Below, one piece after another: positions 5,628 through 14,222 of a DNA stretch of 15,318 nt. Where the stretch lies: contig JAEOSU010000069.1 of assembly GCA_016840165.1 (NCBI GenBank), forward strand, positions 1-15,318, in the 5' to 3' direction. The notes under the pieces are model-generated. The model did not search any database. It was not told the origin of the DNA and saw nothing but the letters and a program-made list of their open reading frames with translations. Source of the stretch: Promethearchaeota archaeon. GTDB lineage: Archaea; Asgardarchaeota; Lokiarchaeia; Sigyniarchaeales; SOKP01. The stretch's first letter is position 1. The number at the start of each line of letters is the position of its first letter. A program made the translations under genes and the position numbers.

Positions 5628-7130
5628 TTATATTCTTACTTGTATACCTTTTTTTAAAAGATATCTTTTTAGGTCTCGAATTAACATTAATCTTTTATGG
5701 AATAATGATGCTGCTAATACAGCTTCAGCTCCCATATTCAAGGCGTTATAAAAATGATCATAGGTCCCAGCTCCTCCAGATGCAATGACTGGGACCGAGA
5801 CTGCTTTACAAAGTTCTCGAATTAAGCACAGATCATATCCAGATTGTGTACCATCTCTGTCCATGCTGGTAACTAATAGTTCTCCCGCTCCATAATCTAC
5901 AATTTTTTTTGCCCAAGTTATTCCATCCAAACCTGTGGGCTCAGTACCAGATTTAATATAAACTTCCCATCCAGAACCTTTTTGTTTGACATCTATTGCC
6001 ACCACAATCGATTGACTCCCGAATTTTTTAGCACTTTCTCTTATTAACTTAGGGTTTTTTACTGCTGCAGTATTAATACTTACCTTTTCAGCTCCTGCTT
6101 TAATGATACGACGGACATCAGTTAGATTCCTAATACCTCCTCCAACAGTGAAAGGTATATATACTTCCTCCGCTACTTTCTTTATGATTGGTATCATACT
6201 ATCTCGATCCTCAAGAGTAGCGGATATATCCAAAAAAACTAACTCATCTGCTCCTTCTTTATTATAAAATTGCGCTAGTGCAACCGGATCTCCGCTGTCT
6301 TTTAAATTGTTAAACTGAACTCCCTTCACTACTCTCCCATCTTTTACGTCGAGACAAGGGATTACTCTTCTGGTAAGATTAGTTGGATTATACTCAAGTT
6401 TTAGTTTAAATAAGTCATTGATATTTATTTTGTTGTCATATAACGCTTTTCCAATCACTACTCCATCAGTATATTTTAGGCATTTTTTTACATCTCTTAA
6501 ATTACCGATTCCACCTGCTGCAATTAGCATAGTATCAATATTTTTAATTTTGCTAAGAGCTTTATACATTTTTAAATTAGGTCCGGATAATGTTCCATCT
6601 CGTGAGATATCGGTGACAAGAAATTCTACAGCACCTTGGGACTCAAATTGAGTGAATAGAGTTGTTAATCCAATATAAGAGTCCTTTAACCACCCATGTG
6701 TACTTATAGCATTATTCTGAAAATCTAAAGCTACGATAATATCGTTCTTATAGTTATCCAATAATCTTTGGAAGAGTAATTGATCTTGAATAGCAAGAGT
6801 CCCGATTATAGCTTTAAAAAGTCCAAGATCTAATAATTTCTTAATAATTTTTTCAGTTCGGAGCCCTCCTCCTAATTGAATTTTAACTCTCCATTTGTTA
6901 CTTTCCTCGATGAGAGATCGAATGAGTTTATAGTTTGGACCTTGTTCAAATTCACCTGAACGAGCACCATTTAAGTTTATAACATGTATTAGATCAAATC
7001 CTTTTTTTGTAAAATAACGTAAAAGAGAAGATGGATCTTCAGAATAAGTAGAAAGCTTATTAAAATCTCCTTGATATAACCTGACCACCTTTCCATCATA
7101 GAGATCGATTGCTGGGATTGGTTTTTTCAG
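5628..7130 (-). CDS. hisA-hisF: Fused HisA (ProFAR isomerase) and HisF (imidazole glycerol phosphate synthase cyclase subunit)
   Basis: N half has IPAIDLYDGKVVRLYQGD, QLGGGLR, TDISRDGTLSGPN and IAAGGI (HisA). C half from about 6377 has RRVIPCLDVKDGRVVKG, GADELVFLDISAT, TSMDRDGT and PVIASGGAG (HisF). Single frame with no stop at the junction. Start placed at CTG 7130 to include the PAID motif. Confidence 0.93.
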   Translation of the reverse strand: MKKPIPAIDLYDGKVVRLYQGDFNKLSTYSEDPSSLLRYFTKKGFDLIHVINLNGARSGEFEQGPNYKLIRSLIEESNKWRVKIQLGGGLRTEKIIKKLLDLGLFKAIIGTLAIQDQLLFQRLLDNYKNDIIVALDFQNNAISTHGWLKDSYIGLTTLFTQFESQGAVEFLVTDISRDGTLSGPNLKMYKALSKIKNIDTMLIAAGGIGNLRDVKKCLKYTDGVVIGKALYDNKININDLFKLKLEYNPTNLTRRVIPCLDVKDGRVVKGVQFNNLKDSGDPVALAQFYNKEGADELVFLDISATLEDRDSMIPIIKKVAEEVYIPFTVGGGIRNLTDVRRIIKAGAEKVSINTAAVKNPKLIRESAKKFGSQSIVVAIDVKQKGSGWEVYIKSGTEPTGLDGITWAKKIVDYGAGELLVTSMDRDGTQSGYDLCLIRELCKAVSVPVIASGGAGTYDHFYNALNMGAEAVLAASLFHKRLMLIRDLKRYLLKKGIQVRI

Positions 7131-7137
7131 AATTTAA

Positions 7138-7737
7138 TCACCTTCCCATTAATGAGATGAAAAATTGAATTACATTATCTCCCGTCTGCTTACTTTTCTC
7201 GGGATGGAATTGCACTCCAAGAATGTGCTCTTTTAAAATGATAACCGGTATAAAACTTCCATGATTAATGTAAGAGATGACAAGAGTTTCATCACTTGGG
7301 CTACAATAATAGGAGTGATTGAAATAGGCATACCCATAAAAGTAGGGGGCTGATATTGGAATAAGCCGATTCCAGCCAGTATGAGGTAGTTTAATTGCAT
7401 TTAATCTCATCGTTTCAATATGAAGAACATTCCCAGGGATGATATTTAAACCATGAATTCCTCGCGACTCTTGAGATTGGGAGAATAATAGTTGCATTCC
7501 TAAACAAATTCCCATCGTTGGGACTTGATTAATTTTCTCTATGAGTATTTCATAAAGGTTATTTTGTTGAAGTTCCCTAATCGCATCTCCAAAAGCCCCT
7601 ACTCCTGGAAGAATGATTCCTTTTGCTTGTTGTATTAAATCTAAATCTTTTGTTATAGTTACTTTAGGATAAAACCGAATAATGCTTTTTTGGATGGAAC
7701 GCAAATTCCCACTCCCATAATCAATTATAGTTATCAT
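7138..7737 (-). CDS. hisH: Imidazole glycerol phosphate synthase glutaminase subunit
   Basis: IIDYGSGNLRS, LPGVGAF, GICLGMQ (catalytic Cys) and QFHPEKS. AAGGAG RBS. Confidence 0.96.
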   Translation of the reverse strand: MITIIDYGSGNLRSIQKSIIRFYPKVTITKDLDLIQQAKGIILPGVGAFGDAIRELQQNNLYEILIEKINQVPTMGICLGMQLLFSQSQESRGIHGLNIIPGNVLHIETMRLNAIKLPHTGWNRLIPISAPYFYGYAYFNHSYYCSPSDETLVISYINHGSFIPVIILKEHILGVQFHPEKSKQTGDNVIQFFISLMGR

Positions 7738-7750
7738 TTTAATAAACTCC

Positions 7751-8356
7751 TTAAAGCAACCCTTTACTCGATGGTATTGTACTTTTACGTTTTGGATCTA
7801 TGCGGGAAGCAGAATCTAATGCTTTACCTAAAGCTTTAAATATTGCTTCTGCGATATGATGATTATTTTGTCCATATAATACTCTAATATGAAGAGTCAA
7901 TTCAGCTTGCACTGCAAAACTATATAAAAAGTGCTCAAGTAAATCAACAGGAATTAAATTTTCTTCCTTGGATCCCAAAAACGGATTTACCCATTCAATC
8001 TCTTTGCTGAAGTATGGCCTTGAGGAGAGATCAACAGCAACAAACGCAAGGCTTTCATCCATTGGAAAGAAGCAATGCCCAACTCGGTTAATCCCTTGTT
8101 TATCTCCCAAAACTTTTTTGAACGCTTTTCCCAATACAATGGCAGTGTCTTCTATTAAATGGTGATTATCAATTTCAAGATCACCATCTGCACGAAGGTT
8201 GACATCAAAAGAGCCATGAATTGCAATTTGTGTGAGCAAATGATCAAAAAATGCAATAGAGGTTTTTATCTCATGGATCCCGGATCCATCGATATTAAGC
8301 TCTATTTTAATATCAGTTTCTTCGGTCTTTCTTGCTATTTGCGTCTTTCTTTCCAT
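7751..8356 (-). CDS. hisB: Imidazoleglycerol-phosphate dehydratase (monofunctional)
   Basis: RKTEETDI, FFDHLL, DNHHLIED, PMDESL, NNHHIAEAIFKA and PSSKG motifs. No N-terminal phosphatase domain. Confidence 0.96.
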   Translation of the reverse strand: MERKTQIARKTEETDIKIELNIDGSGIHEIKTSIAFFDHLLTQIAIHGSFDVNLRADGDLEIDNHHLIEDTAIVLGKAFKKVLGDKQGINRVGHCFFPMDESLAFVAVDLSSRPYFSKEIEWVNPFLGSKEENLIPVDLLEHFLYSFAVQAELTLHIRVLYGQNNHHIAEAIFKALGKALDSASRIDPKRKSTIPSSKGLL

Positions 8357-8357
8357 T

Positions 8358-9491
8358 CTATCTCCCTCCTAAAAATGATTTAATTATTTCTATTACTTTC
8401 TTCATTTGGTTTTTCGTACCTATTGAAATACGAAGGCAATCTGCCAGCTGTCCCTCAAATTTACGAAGTTTAATATTATGAGTGAGAAAATATTCATAAA
8501 GTGATCGTGCTATTTCTAATGATTGGAACCGTAATAACACAAAATTTGCTTCACTTGGGTGTAAATAGAATACCGTATATTCTTTTTGTAGGTTTAATAA
8601 ATCGTGGTAAAATTCATCTCGAAGTGATCTGATTTCTGCGATATTCTTCATAATTATAGCCTTTTCCTGCAAGAGGATTGAGCCAAAAGTGAGCGCAACA
8701 CTATTAACATTATAGGGGCCTTTTACTTGAGTTAGAACGTTAATTATACGAGGGTGAGCTACAGCATATCCCAGTCGTAAACCAGCGAGAGAATATGATT
8801 TGCTAAAGGATCGCAATATGATTAGATTTTCGTATCCTTTTATTAAGTCAATCAGACTTGATTCATCACTAAAATCAATATAAGCTTCATCAACGATGAC
8901 CAATTTACCAAGTTTTAATAATTTAATTATGAAGTTCCGAGAAATTGCCATGCCATCGGGATTGTTTGGTCGAGCTAAGATAATAATTTTCGAATCTTTC
9001 GCCTTTTTAATAAAATTCGATTGATCTAATTCATACAATGCAATTCCAGTCTCTTGGTTTATTCTCAAAATTAAGGGTATGGTTACGTATCGAGCCCCGT
9101 TCAGGTTCACATAGAACTCATACATTGAGAATGAGGGAAATATTCCTAAAACTATGGAATTTCGCATGGTATAAGTCCTAATAATAAGATCTAGCAGAGC
9201 ATCAGAGCCCGATCCCGCAAGCAAGTAAGATGTTGGAATATGTAATTTGAGGGATAAATTATTTAGGAAATTAGCAGCGTTTGGATCGGGATATTGTTTT
9301 ACCATATTTATGAATTCAAAGGAATCAGGCATTTGTATAGGAGGGGCAAATGGATTTTCGTTCTTATCAAGAAATTCTAATTGATTATTGTTCTGCTGTT
9401 TCTCGAAATATGATTCTATGACTAAATTTTGCGATTTCAGAAGTTTCTGAATGTTCGGAACTGGTTTGATAAGGTTGCTGTTCTTAGTCAT
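8358..9491 (-). CDS. hisC: Histidinol-phosphate aminotransferase
   Basis: LDKNENP, YPDP, PNNPDG, VDEAYIDF and RSFSKSYSLAGLRLGY (PLP Lys). Confidence 0.95.
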   Translation of the reverse strand: MTKNSNLIKPVPNIQKLLKSQNLVIESYFEKQQNNNQLEFLDKNENPFAPPIQMPDSFEFINMVKQYPDPNAANFLNNLSLKLHIPTSYLLAGSGSDALLDLIIRTYTMRNSIVLGIFPSFSMYEFYVNLNGARYVTIPLILRINQETGIALYELDQSNFIKKAKDSKIIILARPNNPDGMAISRNFIIKLLKLGKLVIVDEAYIDFSDESSLIDLIKGYENLIILRSFSKSYSLAGLRLGYAVAHPRIINVLTQVKGPYNVNSVALTFGSILLQEKAIIMKNIAEIRSLRDEFYHDLLNLQKEYTVFYLHPSEANFVLLRFQSLEIARSLYEYFLTHNIKLRKFEGQLADCLRISIGTKNQMKKVIEIIKSFLGGR

Positions 9492-10824
9492 TAGTATCCC
9501 TCTCTTTATTATTTTTAAAATTTAATCTTCTCAACTTGGCCGCATTCGCATGTGCAGTAAGCTTTTCAGCTTTAGCAATCTCTTCGGCGTATTGAGAAAG
9601 ATTAAGAGCACTCTCTTTATCGAAATTGATATAACTTATTCTTTTAATGAAATCATTGACCGATAATGCGGAAGAATAACGTGCAGTGCCACTAGTCGGC
9701 ATCACATGACTTGGACCAGCAACATAATCTCCTAAAACTTCAAAAGTGTTTTCTCCAATAAAAATTCCTCCCGCATTTTCAATTTTATTTAAAAAAGCTA
9801 TAGGATCTTCTACCATGAGAGTTAAATGTTCAGGTGCGAATTCATTTGATATCTCGATTGATTGGTTTGTGGATTGTGTAAATATTATTCCCCCATTATT
9901 TTCAATTGATTCTTGGATAACTGAGTTTCTATCTAAATTGATAATTTGACGTTCATATTCTTTTATTAAAGAATCAATTAAGGTTTGAGAAGATGTAATT
10001 ACTATCGGAATTGCACGCACGTCGTGTTCTGCTTGAGCGAGTAAATCTGCTACAATGAGAGATGGATTTGCCGTATCATCAGCAATAATTAGTGCCTCTG
10101 TTGGTCCATATAGTCCGTCAATACCAACAATTCCAAATACCTCTCTTTTCGCCAGAGTTACATAGATATTTCCCGGCCCTACAATTTTATCGACTTTCGG
10201 TACTTGTTTGGTTCCAAAAGCCATAGCTGCAATTGCTTGAGCTCCCCCCATCCTATAAAGGCGAAAATTTGCACCAAGTCGTTTTATTATTCCACAAACT
10301 GCGAAAATAACATCCGATAGCTTTCCACTTTTATTAGGAGGTGATGCTAAGATCAATTCCTTTGTTCCGGCGACAATAGCAGGAATTGCGGTCATCAAGA
10401 GTGAAGAGAATAATGGAGCAGAGCCTCCTGGAATATATATTCCTACTCTTCCAATCGGTTGTATAATTTGCCCTAGCTCTCCTCCGAGATCAAAATTCAT
10501 CCATGAAATAATTGGCTGAGATTTATGAAAACGGAAAATTCTATCTGCTGCAACCTCCAATGCGTTTCGTAATTTAGGGTCAACATTGTTGAGTGCTTCC
10601 TCAAAATCAGCATTTAAAACTTCAAATTCATCAAGATCTGCCTTATCCAACTTTAGGGTCCACTCTCTAACTGCTTGATCTCCTCTTTTTCTTACATCCT
10701 CAATTATCTTTCTTACAACTAGGTCAGGGTTTTCCTGTTGCCCCTCACTTTTAACAATCGAGAAAAGGTTTCTTTTCAATATTTTTTCTTTTGCCTCTTT
10801 TACGGAATATACTTTAATCGTCAA
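9484..10824 (-). CDS. hisD: Histidinol dehydrogenase
   Basis: GIYIPGG, GGAQAIAAMAFGT, KIVGPGN, DLLAQAEHD, APEHL and GDYVAGPSHVMPT. TTG start behind GGGGATGA. Confidence 0.97.
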   Translation of the reverse strand: MTIKVYSVKEAKEKILKRNLFSIVKSEGQQENPDLVVRKIIEDVRKRGDQAVREWTLKLDKADLDEFEVLNADFEEALNNVDPKLRNALEVAADRIFRFHKSQPIISWMNFDLGGELGQIIQPIGRVGIYIPGGSAPLFSSLLMTAIPAIVAGTKELILASPPNKSGKLSDVIFAVCGIIKRLGANFRLYRMGGAQAIAAMAFGTKQVPKVDKIVGPGNIYVTLAKREVFGIVGIDGLYGPTEALIIADDTANPSLIVADLLAQAEHDVRAIPIVITSSQTLIDSLIKEYERQIINLDRNSVIQESIENNGGIIFTQSTNQSIEISNEFAPEHLTLMVEDPIAFLNKIENAGGIFIGENTFEVLGDYVAGPSHVMPTSGTARYSSALSVNDFIKRISYINFDKESALNLSQYAEEIAKAEKLTAHANAAKLRRLNFKNNKERDTND

Positions 10825-11833
10825 TCATCCCCAATTCCATTTTTAATTGCCTGTATCTTAATGGTTCTTCTTCAAAAATATATAAAGTTGGAGCAATAAC
10901 GACACCACTGCCCCCAATAGCTCGTAAATTTGTGATAGCTTGTTGTAATTTTACTTTTTCTACAATTACATGAATCGCATACATTTTCTCCCCACTTTTG
11001 GTAAATACTGGAGAAATTGTCGGTCCTTGAAGTCCTTCTAACCCCTTTTTAGAAAAAATAGCTTGTGCAATCTCTTCGCTACTTTTTCCCCTCATATTGA
11101 CAAATAGTGAAACAAAATTTTGAGCACGCAAAGTAGCTTCAATATATTCAAGTAACTCACGTGCTAAAGTTAATACTGAGGTATGATTTAATGCCGTCCG
11201 ATTTCCAATCAAAACAGCTTCAGAATCAATTATTTTGCCTCCTTTAATTCGCTTTAAACGATTATCTTTTAAAGTCTGCCCTGTAGACACAAGATCTACT
11301 ATTATATCGCTATAATCTAATTCCGGATAGACCTCAAGAGAACTATTTCCCTTAATTAATTTATAGGAGATATCATGTTTAGCAAGAAATTTCTTTGTTA
11401 GATTTGAGAACTTAGTTGCGATTCGGATTGGTTTTTCTTTTTGTTCGATCTCTTCAATAGAATTTTCAGGCCAATCTTCGGGTATAGCGACTTCAAGACT
11501 ACATTTCCCAAAATTTAACGCATCGTGGATTATTATTAATTCATTTTCACTCGAAGTTAGATTTTCTAATACTAAGTCATAACCTACTATTCCCAATTCT
11601 AATGAGCCGTTTAGTATCCCTCTAATGATATCTAACTGTCGTTGATACACCAGTTTGACATTGATTGATTCTCGAATGAAACCAATATATTGTCTTTTCT
11701 TTCTTTGTATATTAAAGCCGCAGCTCTTTAAGAATTCCTCAGTCTCTAGTTCCATCCTTCCTTTTGAAGGAATGGATAGTCTCACATCTCGGTGTTTATA
11801 CTTAGGTGTTTGATTGAATTTCGATCTGTTCAT
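10814..11833 (-). CDS. hisG: ATP phosphoribosyltransferase, long form with C-terminal regulatory domain
   Basis: [31 protein letters not shown] and C-terminal [10 protein letters not shown]...[13 protein letters not shown] overlap with hisIE and GGAGG RBS. Confidence 0.96.
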
Positions 11834-12732
11834 TTACTTCGCCTCCGTAATTCATTTACAATCTCGCGAGGAGTGATCTTTTGGGTAGCCATTAAAACAA
11901 GTATAAAGTAGGTAAGATCTGCAATCTCCCAGATTAAATTATTGCGATCAGTATAATTAATGACTTCTAGTGATTCCTCTTTGATTTTCGCGAGTAATAA
12001 GTCATAATCCTCGGAAAGTCTTTTCGTATATGAATCTGTGGAGTTAGCATTCTGAATCCGACTTCTTAATATATTAAAAAGATAAGGAATAGAAAATCGT
12101 GAATTTTGAAAGCAAGAATATGAACCAGTATGACAAGCAACCCCGTTTTGATCTACTTGAAATAATAATGTATCAGCATCACAATCATAATAAATTTTTT
12201 TAATTATTTGAGTATTTCCCGATTGCTCACCTTTTATCCAGAGTCGGTTTCGCGATCTGCTAAAATAGATTGCTTTCCTCGTAATTATTGTACGTTTTAA
12301 TGATTCACGTGATGAATATGCTAACATTAATATGATATTATCAAGATCTTGAACGATTGTCGGAATTAATCCTTTTTGCTTTTCGAAATCTAAAGTATCT
12401 AGTAATAGATTATCTATTGATTCAAGATTGGTCTCATTATTAACACTGATAAACTTTTGATTGTTATTAGGATTAAAAATTCCTATTCTATATTTATTTA
12501 GCAAGCTTTTAAGCTCACTATTATTTCCTTTGGCTTCTATATCTATATCGATTTTTTGAGATATTTGGTCTATAATTTTTGTATTTAATAATTTAATTAG
12601 TTGTTCATTGTCTATTTCAAGCACTAGAGACAAAAATAAATCCCAATTTCTCTTTATAAATACCTCTTCAATAAACTCAAGTAAATCCCCAACCGATTCC
12701 ATACCATTCATATCAATTTTTAATTTTATCAT
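11830..12732 (-). CDS. hisIE: Bifunctional phosphoribosyl-AMP cyclohydrolase / phosphoribosyl-ATP pyrophosphohydrolase with about 110-aa extra N-terminal region
   Basis: HisI: [33 protein letters not shown] and [10 protein letters not shown]. HisE: [15 protein letters not shown] and EIADLTY. ATG 12732 has a GGGGG RBS 7 nt upstream and is preferred to TTG 12780. Confidence 0.93.
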
Positions 12733-12840
12733 TTTATAACCCCCAAAACTGAATTTAGTTTCAGTTTTTTTTAACCCCAATGAAAGTTAGACCATAAATG
12801 TCATTATCATTGGGATTATAGATGATAATGCCAATGATGC
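12733..12840 (-). promoter_or_regulatory. Putative his attenuator RNA (alternative helices between the leader ORF and the hisIE RBS)
   Basis: mRNA-sense pairings: CAUUAUCAU(12830-12822):AUGAUAAUG(12810-12802); AUCAUUGG(12838-12831):CCAAUGAU(12813-12806); UAAUCCCAAUGA(12818-12807):UCAUUGGGGUUA(12783-12772); AAAACUGAA(12768-12760):UUCAGUUUU(12753-12745). Confidence 0.7.
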
Positions 12841-12980
12841 GCTTTAAAAGAAGAGTTTTCAAAAATTTCTGCGTTTACATCATTGATTTTAATAAGAAAA
12901 TCCTTATTAGAAGTAATTGGAAAGGAGATACTCAATATGGTAATTTCCGGTTTAATTGTACCAAATTGAAGATCAATCAT
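12816..12980 (-). CDS. Putative his operon leader peptide, 54 aa: MIDLQFGTIKPEITILSISFPITSNKDFLIKINDVNAEIFENSSFKAHHWHYHL
   Basis: Translated by hand. ATG 12980 is preceded by TAGTGAAAAATA, the same context as the 934 gene start. All four His codons (CAT) fall in the last 7 codons. The stop is 83 nt before the hisIE ATG. Confidence 0.75.
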   Translation of the reverse strand: MIDLQFGTIKPEITILSISFPITSNKDFLIKINDVNAEIFENSSFKAHHWHYHL

Positions 12981-13340
12981 TATTTTTCACTAATATTGAG
13001 TATTTACTACTACATAAGATTAATTAGGATCTTTAGGTTAACTACACTAAAAAATATTTGCTTTCAAACATAAATTTCTAAAGAAAGAGAATATTCATGT
13101 CTTTTAATAAAAGGAGAGTTTTAATAATTGATAATATTCTCATCCCAATTATATGCCTTATTATTTTATTCATACTTTCTATAGATCAAGGAGAATAGAC
13201 TGGGATTTTTGAACCTCCTGGTCTTTAGTTTATAGAATATATTTTTTAAAAAATCCTAATACTCTTTTAATTTTTAAGTTATTAAATTATTTTTAAATTA
13301 CCCCTATAAAAGACATAAGATAATTGAAGGTTGAAATCAC

Positions 13341-14222
13341 GTGCAAATTGAATTTTTAGATAAAAAGACAGCTTCCTCAGTTATATCAGAGAAGGATTTG
13401 TATCTTAGCAACTTTAGTAAATTTGACATTCAATCTCGATTAGGAATTATCGAGGAAGCAACTTTGAACGATTTGATGGAATTTCTTTCATATCAAACAC
13501 TTAACTGGGATGAATTTGAAAGAGAGACCGTTGAAAAAATCTTTTCTGACTTGGAGCGAGCTTATATGCCCTATAAAGAAAATTTTCCTAAACACATAGA
13601 ATTAATAAAAACCACAGGAAGAGAAGAAGCTGATGCTGCATATACAAGAAAAAATAGAATTTATATCCCCATTTCAATGCTAGAATGGAGCTATAATGAA
13701 TTAAAAGAACTAATAGCCCATGAACTATTCCACGTCTTTAGTAATATGAACCCCAAACTAAGAAATGGGTTATACACTAAATTAGGATTTATTCCCTGTC
13801 CAGATTTACAGATTCCAAAGGCTTATCAAGATTTTTATGTAACTAACCCTGATACAATAGGAAAAAATTGTTACCTTCAATTTCTAGAGAATGGAGAACT
13901 TGTAAAAGGTGTTTCTTTTCTCTATTCTAAAGGTCCATATCGCGGAGGGTACTTTTTTCAATATTTCCGCTTTTCTTTTCTCATAGCTGAAGTGACTTCA
14001 AACAGATGTACCCCCCTGTACGATGGAGATCATATCAGGTTTAGCAAAGTCCCTCAGAGTCTCTATGATTTATGTACTGAATTAGATCCCTATAATAATC
14101 AGCACCGAATCCATCCTGAAGAAATTTTAGCATATTATTGGAGTTTACTTCCTTTCAGATTCTCAGAAATTAGTTTCAATAAAAGAGTTTTTTTAAAAAA
14201 AATCAAAAGCAAAATAATGTGA
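13341..14222 (+). CDS. Putative zinc metallopeptidase (HEXXH)
   Basis: AYTRKNRIY...LIAHELFHV and a downstream HPEEILA third-ligand motif. GTG start behind GAAGGTTGA. Divergent from the his operon. Confidence 0.75.
   Translation: MQIEFLDKKTASSVISEKDLYLSNFSKFDIQSRLGIIEEATLNDLMEFLSYQTLNWDEFERETVEKIFSDLERAYMPYKENFPKHIELIKTTGREEADAAYTRKNRIYIPISMLEWSYNELKELIAHELFHVFSNMNPKLRNGLYTKLGFIPCPDLQIPKAYQDFYVTNPDTIGKNCYLQFLENGELVKGVSFLYSKGPYRGGYFFQYFRFSFLIAEVTSNRCTPLYDGDHIRFSKVPQSLYDLCTELDPYNNQHRIHPEEILAYYWSLLPFRFSEISFNKRVFLKKIKSKIM

Follow-up and report, generated by a model that had tools for sequence, protein, structure and literature searches.

Bacteria provide the textbook cases of leader-peptide attenuation, which needs transcription and translation to be coupled. 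In the enterobacterial hisL leader (RF00514), a small ORF rich in His codons lies 5' of the his operon and is followed by stable hairpins, and ribosomes stalling within this ORF report the charging of tRNA-His. The trpL, leuL, thrL, ilvL and pheL leaders, along with their Actinobacterial and Bacteroidetes variants, likewise carry a cluster of cognate codons near the end of an upstream ORF whose stop codon lies beside a hairpin. In leaders of the ermC/cat type, a stalled leader ribosome remodels the downstream RNA beside the Shine-Dalgarno (SD) sequence of the regulated gene. For archaea, our full-text literature searches found no report of leader-peptide attenuation.

Here we describe how a locus of an Asgard archaeon, a member of the closest prokaryotic relatives of eukaryotes, resembles these systems in the features just named, or would do so under the mechanism proposed below. 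The locus lies on the minus strand of a 15,318-nt stretch of DNA (the window). From sequence comparison we consider it likely that a 54-codon upstream ORF (uORF) is a translated leader peptide that senses His-tRNA and sets expression of the his operon in cis. We have high confidence in the role of this putative leader as a sensor, as judged from comparative data, and from the same data we infer translation of the uORF, ribosome stalling and the direction of regulation.

Host, operon and upstream reading frame

The genome to which the window belongs is 3.6 Mb in size with 31.6% GC, a value that the window matches, and its completeness and contamination are estimated at 99.7% and 6.3%, respectively. 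Among its genes are four for actin-family proteins (up to 442 bits), two for TBP and 56 for Ras-family GTPases; eukaryote-like actins, TBP and many Ras-family GTPases form a combination that is typical of Asgard archaea. NCBI taxonomy places Promethearchaeota within the kingdom Promethearchaeati. In one relative (G008; JAUVNS01, Promethearchaeota CSMAG_616), the leader and hisIE are located at ~136 kb of a 273-kb contig; this contig holds three genes for Ras-family GTPases as well, of which one is 16 kb from the leader locus. Because the leader shares this contig with Ras-family GTPases, a bacterial contaminant as the origin of the locus is excluded by the sequence comparison. A reading made from the letters of the window alone (the sequence-only reading) had let most of the novelty of the locus depend on contig taxonomy, which the actins, TBP, the 56 GTPases and the relative's 273-kb contig show to be archaeal.

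The his operon comprises seven genes, all co-directional, at 5628-12732 on the minus strand. It is led by hisIE (11830-12732; PRA-CH plus PRA-PH), assigned by Pfam, alignment and an AF2 model, and continues with hisG, hisD, hisC, hisB, hisH and a hisA-hisF fusion (5628-11833), read from the ORF list and its translations; Pfam covers hisIE and hisAF only, and the remaining his gene names derive from the translations. In most cases the junctions between these genes overlap or abut, which means that control exerted at the first gene can spread. HisA and HisF are joined in a single 486-aa chain (5628-7088, minus strand) with two His_biosynth domains (Pfam E 4e-139), an uncommon type of his fusion.

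Upstream of and co-oriented with hisIE, the uORF occupies 12980-12816 of the minus strand and consists of 54 codons plus TAA, translating to MIDLQFGTIKPEITILSISFPITSNKDFLIKINDVNAEIFENSSFKAHHWHYHL*. His residues are absent from positions 1-47 and appear at positions 48, 49, 51 and 53, giving the C-terminal end HHWHYHL*. The 3' end reads CAT CAT TGG CAT TAT CAT CTA TAA, with the proposed sensing codons at 12822-12839, and 83 nt separate the stop codon (ending at 12816) from the hisIE ATG at 12732. In all these elements, from the length, orientation and spacing of the ORF to the confinement of His to the codons after the 47th, the sequence-only reading had described the uORF correctly. The same goes for its observation that the start context is shared with another gene of the window, since TAGTGAAAAA is also found 5' of the gene at 281-934. 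No Pfam match was obtained for the uORF peptide.

The cluster in the window holds just four His residues, broken up by Trp and Tyr, which weighs against a sensor. In the genome, 3056 large ORFs were called, with 5081 small ORFs upstream of them. The uORF carries the top His cluster of all 5081 (4/6; binomial p ~3e-6, at a His background frequency of 1.7-2.2%); other top single-residue clusters in the same scan of this genome precede unrelated genes. Judged by its retention at all orthologous loci examined, the uORF of the window is far beyond what chance would predict.

Several signals upstream are consistent with transcription and translation of the uORF. An SD-like GTGA (12987-12990, minus strand) has its first base at position -10 from the ATG. 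A 16S rRNA was not found in the genome assembly, and the SD preference was derived from gene starts in place of the 16S anti-SD: GTGA is the most enriched 4-mer 5' of 1491 ATG gene starts of this genome, peaking at -10/-11. It is found at -10 in nearly all leaders (21/23; GGGA or GGTA in three), and the start codon is ATG, or TTG in two clades. The uORF start is preceded, at a distance of approximately 70 nt, by a T-rich, promoter-like box (13047-13058, minus strand; AATATTTTTTAG, or ATATTTTTTAG as it reads in the window at ~13047-13058), of which the core TTTTTTAG is present in 21 of the 23 aligned leaders between variable flanks. The box, almost invariant and reading AACTTTTTTAG in relatives, is a candidate archaeal TATA box or operator; a TATA box at this distance would place the uORF within the transcript. 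No sigma-70 promoters scored above shuffles around the leader. In some relatives, though not in the window, the 5' UTR contains an additional small hairpin of palindromic sequence (TAGCTA...TAGCTA).

Conservation of the frame and of three helices

The sequence-only reading had named conservation of the His cluster at orthologous loci as one test of its proposal. This cluster is kept at the C-terminus at all of them, a set of ~27 distinct leaders drawn from two genera within one family, over which HisIE identity ranges from 50 to 73%. The loci examined came from genomes (10), metagenomes (18) and a second genus (6), and every orthologous locus with enough upstream sequence carries a co-linear uORF of 36-54 codons, so that the unusual length noted for the window holds across the family. 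A HisIE protein search within the same GTDB genus gave a match in 21 of 41 other species. The His-cluster uORF was present in each of the seven genomes whose match was full-length (HisIE of ~300 aa, the genome of the window included), in one species with a 394-aa variant, and in 18/18 metagenome loci having both a full-length HisIE match and upstream DNA. The uORFs of relatives end in ...SHLHHHQHHK*, ...SEHHHLHYK*, ...SHFHHHQHHE*, ...LHHCQHHY*, ...VVHHWLHH* or ...HHLHHCLRNE*, and those of four close metagenome relatives of the window (HisIE 71-73% identical) in ...SLIHHWLHHL/Q*. Among the 23 aligned leaders, four to six His residues fall within the last 12 codons and zero to two in the remainder, and the cluster uses CAT 102 times and CAC five times. 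The distance from the uORF stop to the hisIE ATG stays between 75 and 87 nt, and uORF and hisIE are arranged in the same way in the second genus.

A covariance model built from 21 leaders found exactly one copy in each of 15 out of 151 genomes sampled from the order: 8/42 in the genus of the window (g1), 7/53 in another genus belonging to the same family (g12), and 0/56 in 22 other genera. The model had no match among 93 other hisIE loci, bacterial or archaeal. Within the genus of the window, the leader co-occurs perfectly with the type of HisIE N-terminus. The HisIE of the window has an N-terminal extension of ~135 aa (residues 1-135; 12328-12732, minus strand), of which the first ~115 form an alpha/beta domain of beta-alpha repeats (AF2 pLDDT 78) with no Pfam match and, in a fold search, no PDB match at E<=0.001. 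The eight leader genomes of g1 are the same eight that have this or the related L006-type N-terminus, and relatives with another extension (~210 aa; HisIE of 397-405 aa) or a bare HisI have no leader, even though they share the same divergent neighbour gene. Any hisIE match at all was obtained in just 22 of the 42 species of the genus, and the genomes concerned include many that are at least 95% complete; histidine biosynthesis thus seems patchy in the genus by gene content, with the operon type varying by clade.

The uORF frame is open in 23/23 aligned leaders and is the sole frame on either strand that is open over the full length in all of them. Differences in leader length are all multiples of three, including a deletion of 14 codons in one clade and of three codons in another, and in most informative leader pairs pN/pS lies between 0.3 and 0.9. 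These ratios indicate that the peptide is under weak purifying selection, as would be predicted for a leader of little-constrained sequence. The peptide is partly conserved, with a central motif LS..F...SN..VIR/K.xDV. An antisense ORF of 83 aa (12822-13073, plus strand) was rejected as a real gene, being interrupted by stop codons in all relatives and open in the window only. A fusion of uORF and hisIE through readthrough or frameshifting was discarded as well, as the 75-87 nt that separate them do not keep a constant phase.

Three helices, here called hp0, hp1 and hp2, accompany this frame. In hp0, the N-D-V codons of the uORF body (12871-12886, minus strand; TCAATGATG...CGC) pair with the first His codons, the 3' arm (12831-12842, minus strand) being GCG CAT CAT TGG, that is, the codons for Ala, His, His and Trp. 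This helix reaches -13.0 kcal/mol in the window (RNAduplex), and pairing between uORF body and His cluster averages -15 kcal/mol (z = -1.97 versus dinucleotide shuffles; significant in 15/21). One hp0 pair switches from G-C to A-U in five sequences, and the helix reads GAUGAUG/CAUCAUC in one clade and CCAAUGAUG/CAUCAUUGG in another. In the closest relatives, the TGG of 'HHW' pairs with an upstream CCA. As such, the pairing of hp0 accounts for the odd Trp codon in the cluster and for part of the peptide conservation, and, because a conserved helix joins upstream codons to His codons, also for part of the length of the leader.

In the MFE fold, hp1 starts with the T of the uORF's stop codon (TAATCCCAATGA, 12807-12818, minus strand) and closes with TCATTGGGGTTA (12772-12783, minus strand). 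According to RNAalifold and pair counts, 97% of its cells are paired, with compensatory changes at two pairs among 15 sequences and at 5/10 pairs among 21. Downstream of it, hp2 is a 9-bp A/U-rich hairpin (12745-12768, minus strand; AAAACTGAA / TTCAGTTTT) in which 12760-12768 pairs with 12745-12753, including two G-C pairs. Its 3' arm ends in U4 in the window, and in U3-4 among the leaders, directly before the hisIE SD (GGGGG, 12740-12744, minus strand); a G-run is conserved in all leaders at 5-7 nt before the hisIE ATG. For hp2, 99% of cells are paired and one subclade shows a G-C to A-U double change; the helix is missing in the L006/L082 variant with the 394-aa HisIE. Taken together, 92% of cells are paired in the three helices versus 29-50% when the partners are slid, the covariation score exceeds that of all 500 shuffles, and each helix contains compensatory changes.

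In the form of the window, the hp2 motif is unique within the genome. A similar pattern, AACTGAA-N-TTCAGTTTKGRGG, belongs, in dozens of Collinsella genomes, to a palindromic repeat that is unrelated, and a scan of genome contigs for the hp2 pattern returned mostly this repeat and otherwise six archaeal records. Read on the opposite strand, 12745-12775 presents hp2 followed by T8 (AAAACTGAATTTAGTTTCAGTTTTTTTT), which could stop antisense transcription in the window; the A-run behind this plus-strand T8 is not conserved in relatives.

Could this conserved region be something other than a sensor of histidine? The uORF might encode a small functional protein that acts in trans, for example a metal-binding or regulatory one with a His-rich tail, in which case its position would not reflect His sensing. 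A length of 36-54 aa is indeed large for a leader, the central motif is kept and pN/pS is below 1, and yet constraint on the peptide is weak, without a Pfam match, and the loss of 14 codons is tolerated by one clade. RNA pairing with the His codons already explains why the N/D-D-V codons are conserved. Moreover, genomes with the element carry a single copy, always before hisIE, and His is the only residue confined to the end adjoining hp1. We consider such a protein highly improbable.

Much the same judgement, very unlikely, applies to a non-coding structured RNA binding a protein, a ligand or a tRNA, in which the frame and the His codons would be by-products of a CAUCAU helix arm. The good conservation of the three helices, with the His codons themselves forming one arm of hp0, speaks for this, and the N-terminal domain of HisIE, which co-occurs with the leader, could in principle bind it. 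A non-coding RNA would nonetheless leave unexplained why the frame, the start with an optimally spaced SD, and the position of the stop are kept in all leaders, why indels come only in multiples of three, and why His codons outside the hp0 pairing are retained too; no Rfam family was hit either, the T-box included. As for an open frame arising by chance in an AT-rich intergenic region, or an artefact of a contig from a bacterial contaminant, the small size of the ORF and the contamination estimate of the bin (6.3%) are all that would favour it. With ~27 distinct sequences in two genera keeping the feature, the same locus lying on the 273-kb contig with Asgard-type GTPases, and the GC content of the window matching that of the genome, this explanation is already effectively refuted by the comparative data. 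A translated leader that senses His-tRNA remains the reading that we carry forward below.

A proposed route from ribosome position to his expression

In the proposed mechanism, the C-terminal cluster of His codons would report how fully tRNA-His is charged. Under a shortage of His-tRNA, ribosomes would stall on these codons, the 3' arm of hp0 just upstream of the stop; when His-tRNA is plentiful, they would reach the stop codon, which lies in the base of hp1. Given this location, a terminating ribosome must melt hp1. In a bacterial ribosome, mRNA is unwound from approximately +11 and covered to approximately +15, counted from the first base of the P site, and it should be noted that our reasoning on hp1 uses these bacterial dimensions, which may not be those of the host. 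With these dimensions, a ribosome whose A site holds the stop codon would open practically all of the conserved hp1 stem, and one at the last one or two His codons would open at most the basal zero to five pairs. At the earlier His codons a ribosome would open no pairs of hp1. Stalling would also keep hp0 open. That histidine limitation would leave hp1 folded, and free flow to the stop would melt it repeatedly, is in our view a robust inference. The folding state of the leader (hp0, hp1 and hp2) would thereby be coupled to the supply of histidine and would set expression of hisIE-G-D-C-B-H-AF in cis.

So through what step does the leader act on the operon? The sequence-only reading had proposed a His-sensing attenuator, and its His-sensing part is supported by the comparative evidence. 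Within 12500-13400 there is no bacterial-type terminator, no terminator-like site scoring above shuffles. The U4 of hp2 sits inside the stem, and throughout the leader only U3-4 is kept, mostly paired within hp2. Genome-wide, the first 30 nt after stop codons are enriched in runs of at least five T that no hairpin signal precedes, and T7+ occurs in 23% of post-stop flanks of this genome versus 7% for A7+. The terminators of this uncultured lineage thus look like oligo-T runs of the archaeal type that function without hairpins, as far as these frequencies can tell. Published archaeal terminators are U4-containing U-tracts that act with aCPSF1 and do not require a hairpin (PMC8716108), and the enrichment of T-runs without hairpins in this genome matches them.

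Two alternative pairings within the leader, of the sort that a classical switch requires, are possible. The His codons could pair with the 5' arm of hp1 in 80% of cells, and the 3' arm of hp1 plus linker with the 3' arm of hp2 in 89% of cells. For both of these helices covariation does not go beyond shuffles, and both are thermodynamically weaker than hp0, hp1 and hp2; hp2 stays the favoured fold under every ribosome-occlusion constraint that was tried. A classical antiterminator, in which the 3' arm of hp1 would pair with the 5' arm of hp2, was rejected for lack of complementarity.

The ribosome-binding site (RBS) of hisIE was examined in the same manner. Complementarity between its SD/AUG and the uORF body, the His cluster, or the arms and loop of hp1 is not above that of dinucleotide shuffles, with duplex energies against leader segments giving mean z values of -0.4 to +0.5. 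A companion idea of the sequence-only reading, which placed an anti-SD inside the first hairpin, holds in the window, where RBS-hp1 pairing has a z of -1.4, and in a few relatives such as L050 (z -4.0), but does not extend to the family: sequestration of the SD by the loop or 3' arm of hp1 is not conserved (mean z -0.39). An anti-SD in the uORF body (TTTTCCTTT) is not above chance either. When hp1 was blocked, no conserved partner of the RBS was found. Blocking the 5' arm of hp1 raises the opening energy of the RBS in 9 of 10 leaders, which was set aside since any freed segment would do so.

With the His codons in a helix arm, a stop codon at the foot of the helix that follows, and no recognisable terminator, the architecture suggests an output unlike the bacterial one, and any mechanism of attenuation probably differs from that of bacteria. 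Tentatively, the output might be premature termination or processing of the archaeal type at the conserved U3-4 after hp2 (U-tract/aCPSF1-FttA type). Control of hisIE translation initiation beside hp2, spreading by translational coupling and polarity, is only slightly less probable, and stabilisation of the mRNA by a stalled ribosome or by the folded leader we consider unlikely. A role for FttA as a quality control of coupling is no more than a hypothesis (PMC11616081).

In broader terms, we see an even chance that Asgard archaea control an amino-acid operon by stalling on a leader of cognate codons, with an archaeal output in place of an intrinsic terminator of the bacterial type; such an output could be FttA/aCPSF1-dependent termination at a U-tract, or re-loading could be controlled at the first cistron. 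In this genome neither trpB2 nor the single leuA-like (HMGL-like) gene has a cognate leader in front of it, which weighs against the proposal. Being long and partly conserved, the peptide could also have a function of its own. Should a conserved Asgard His leader prove true, ribosome-based sensing of amino acids would exist on the archaeal side of the tree. Furthermore, the compact element, ~330 nt when counted from the promoter-like box up to the start of hisIE, would provide a test bed for communication between archaeal RNA polymerase, FttA/aCPSF1 and the ribosome, and it would improve the annotation of small ORFs and of operon regulation in uncultured archaea.

Comparison with known leader systems

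How does this leader relate to the systems named at the outset? With the ermC/cat type it shares the remodelling of RNA beside the SD of the regulated gene that a stalled leader ribosome would bring about. The signals differ, since a drug causes the stall in ermC/cat leaders, whereas in the proposed Asgard leader uncharged tRNA would do so. In addition, the SD of ermC is sequestered in a hairpin, and in the Asgard leader no segment exceeds chance in its complementarity to the SD/AUG. On SD sequestration, the leader thus falls outside the ermC-type translational class.

Among the amino-acid leaders, the classical attenuators are bacterial and operate through intrinsic or Rho-dependent termination, whereas a terminator/antiterminator pair is not identifiable in the Asgard leader. 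Relative to hisL, the uORF is three times longer (36-54 codons versus 16), and its four to six His codons are interrupted and located at the extreme C-terminus, where hisL has seven in succession. In hisL these codons make up the 5' arm of the first switch helix; in the Asgard leader they are the 3' arm of a helix lying upstream, and the G+C-rich terminator hairpin with a long U-run that characterizes hisL has no counterpart here. A cmscan of 12500-13500 against all of Rfam at E<=1 gave no match, including to RF00514 His_leader and the T-box. The Asgard leader is therefore not a member of RF00514, and hisL is nevertheless the closest known system. Two features of the general class of leader-peptide sensors are present, a conserved uORF that is predicted to be translatable and an enrichment of cognate codons before a his operon, and the leader would work in the manner of that class.
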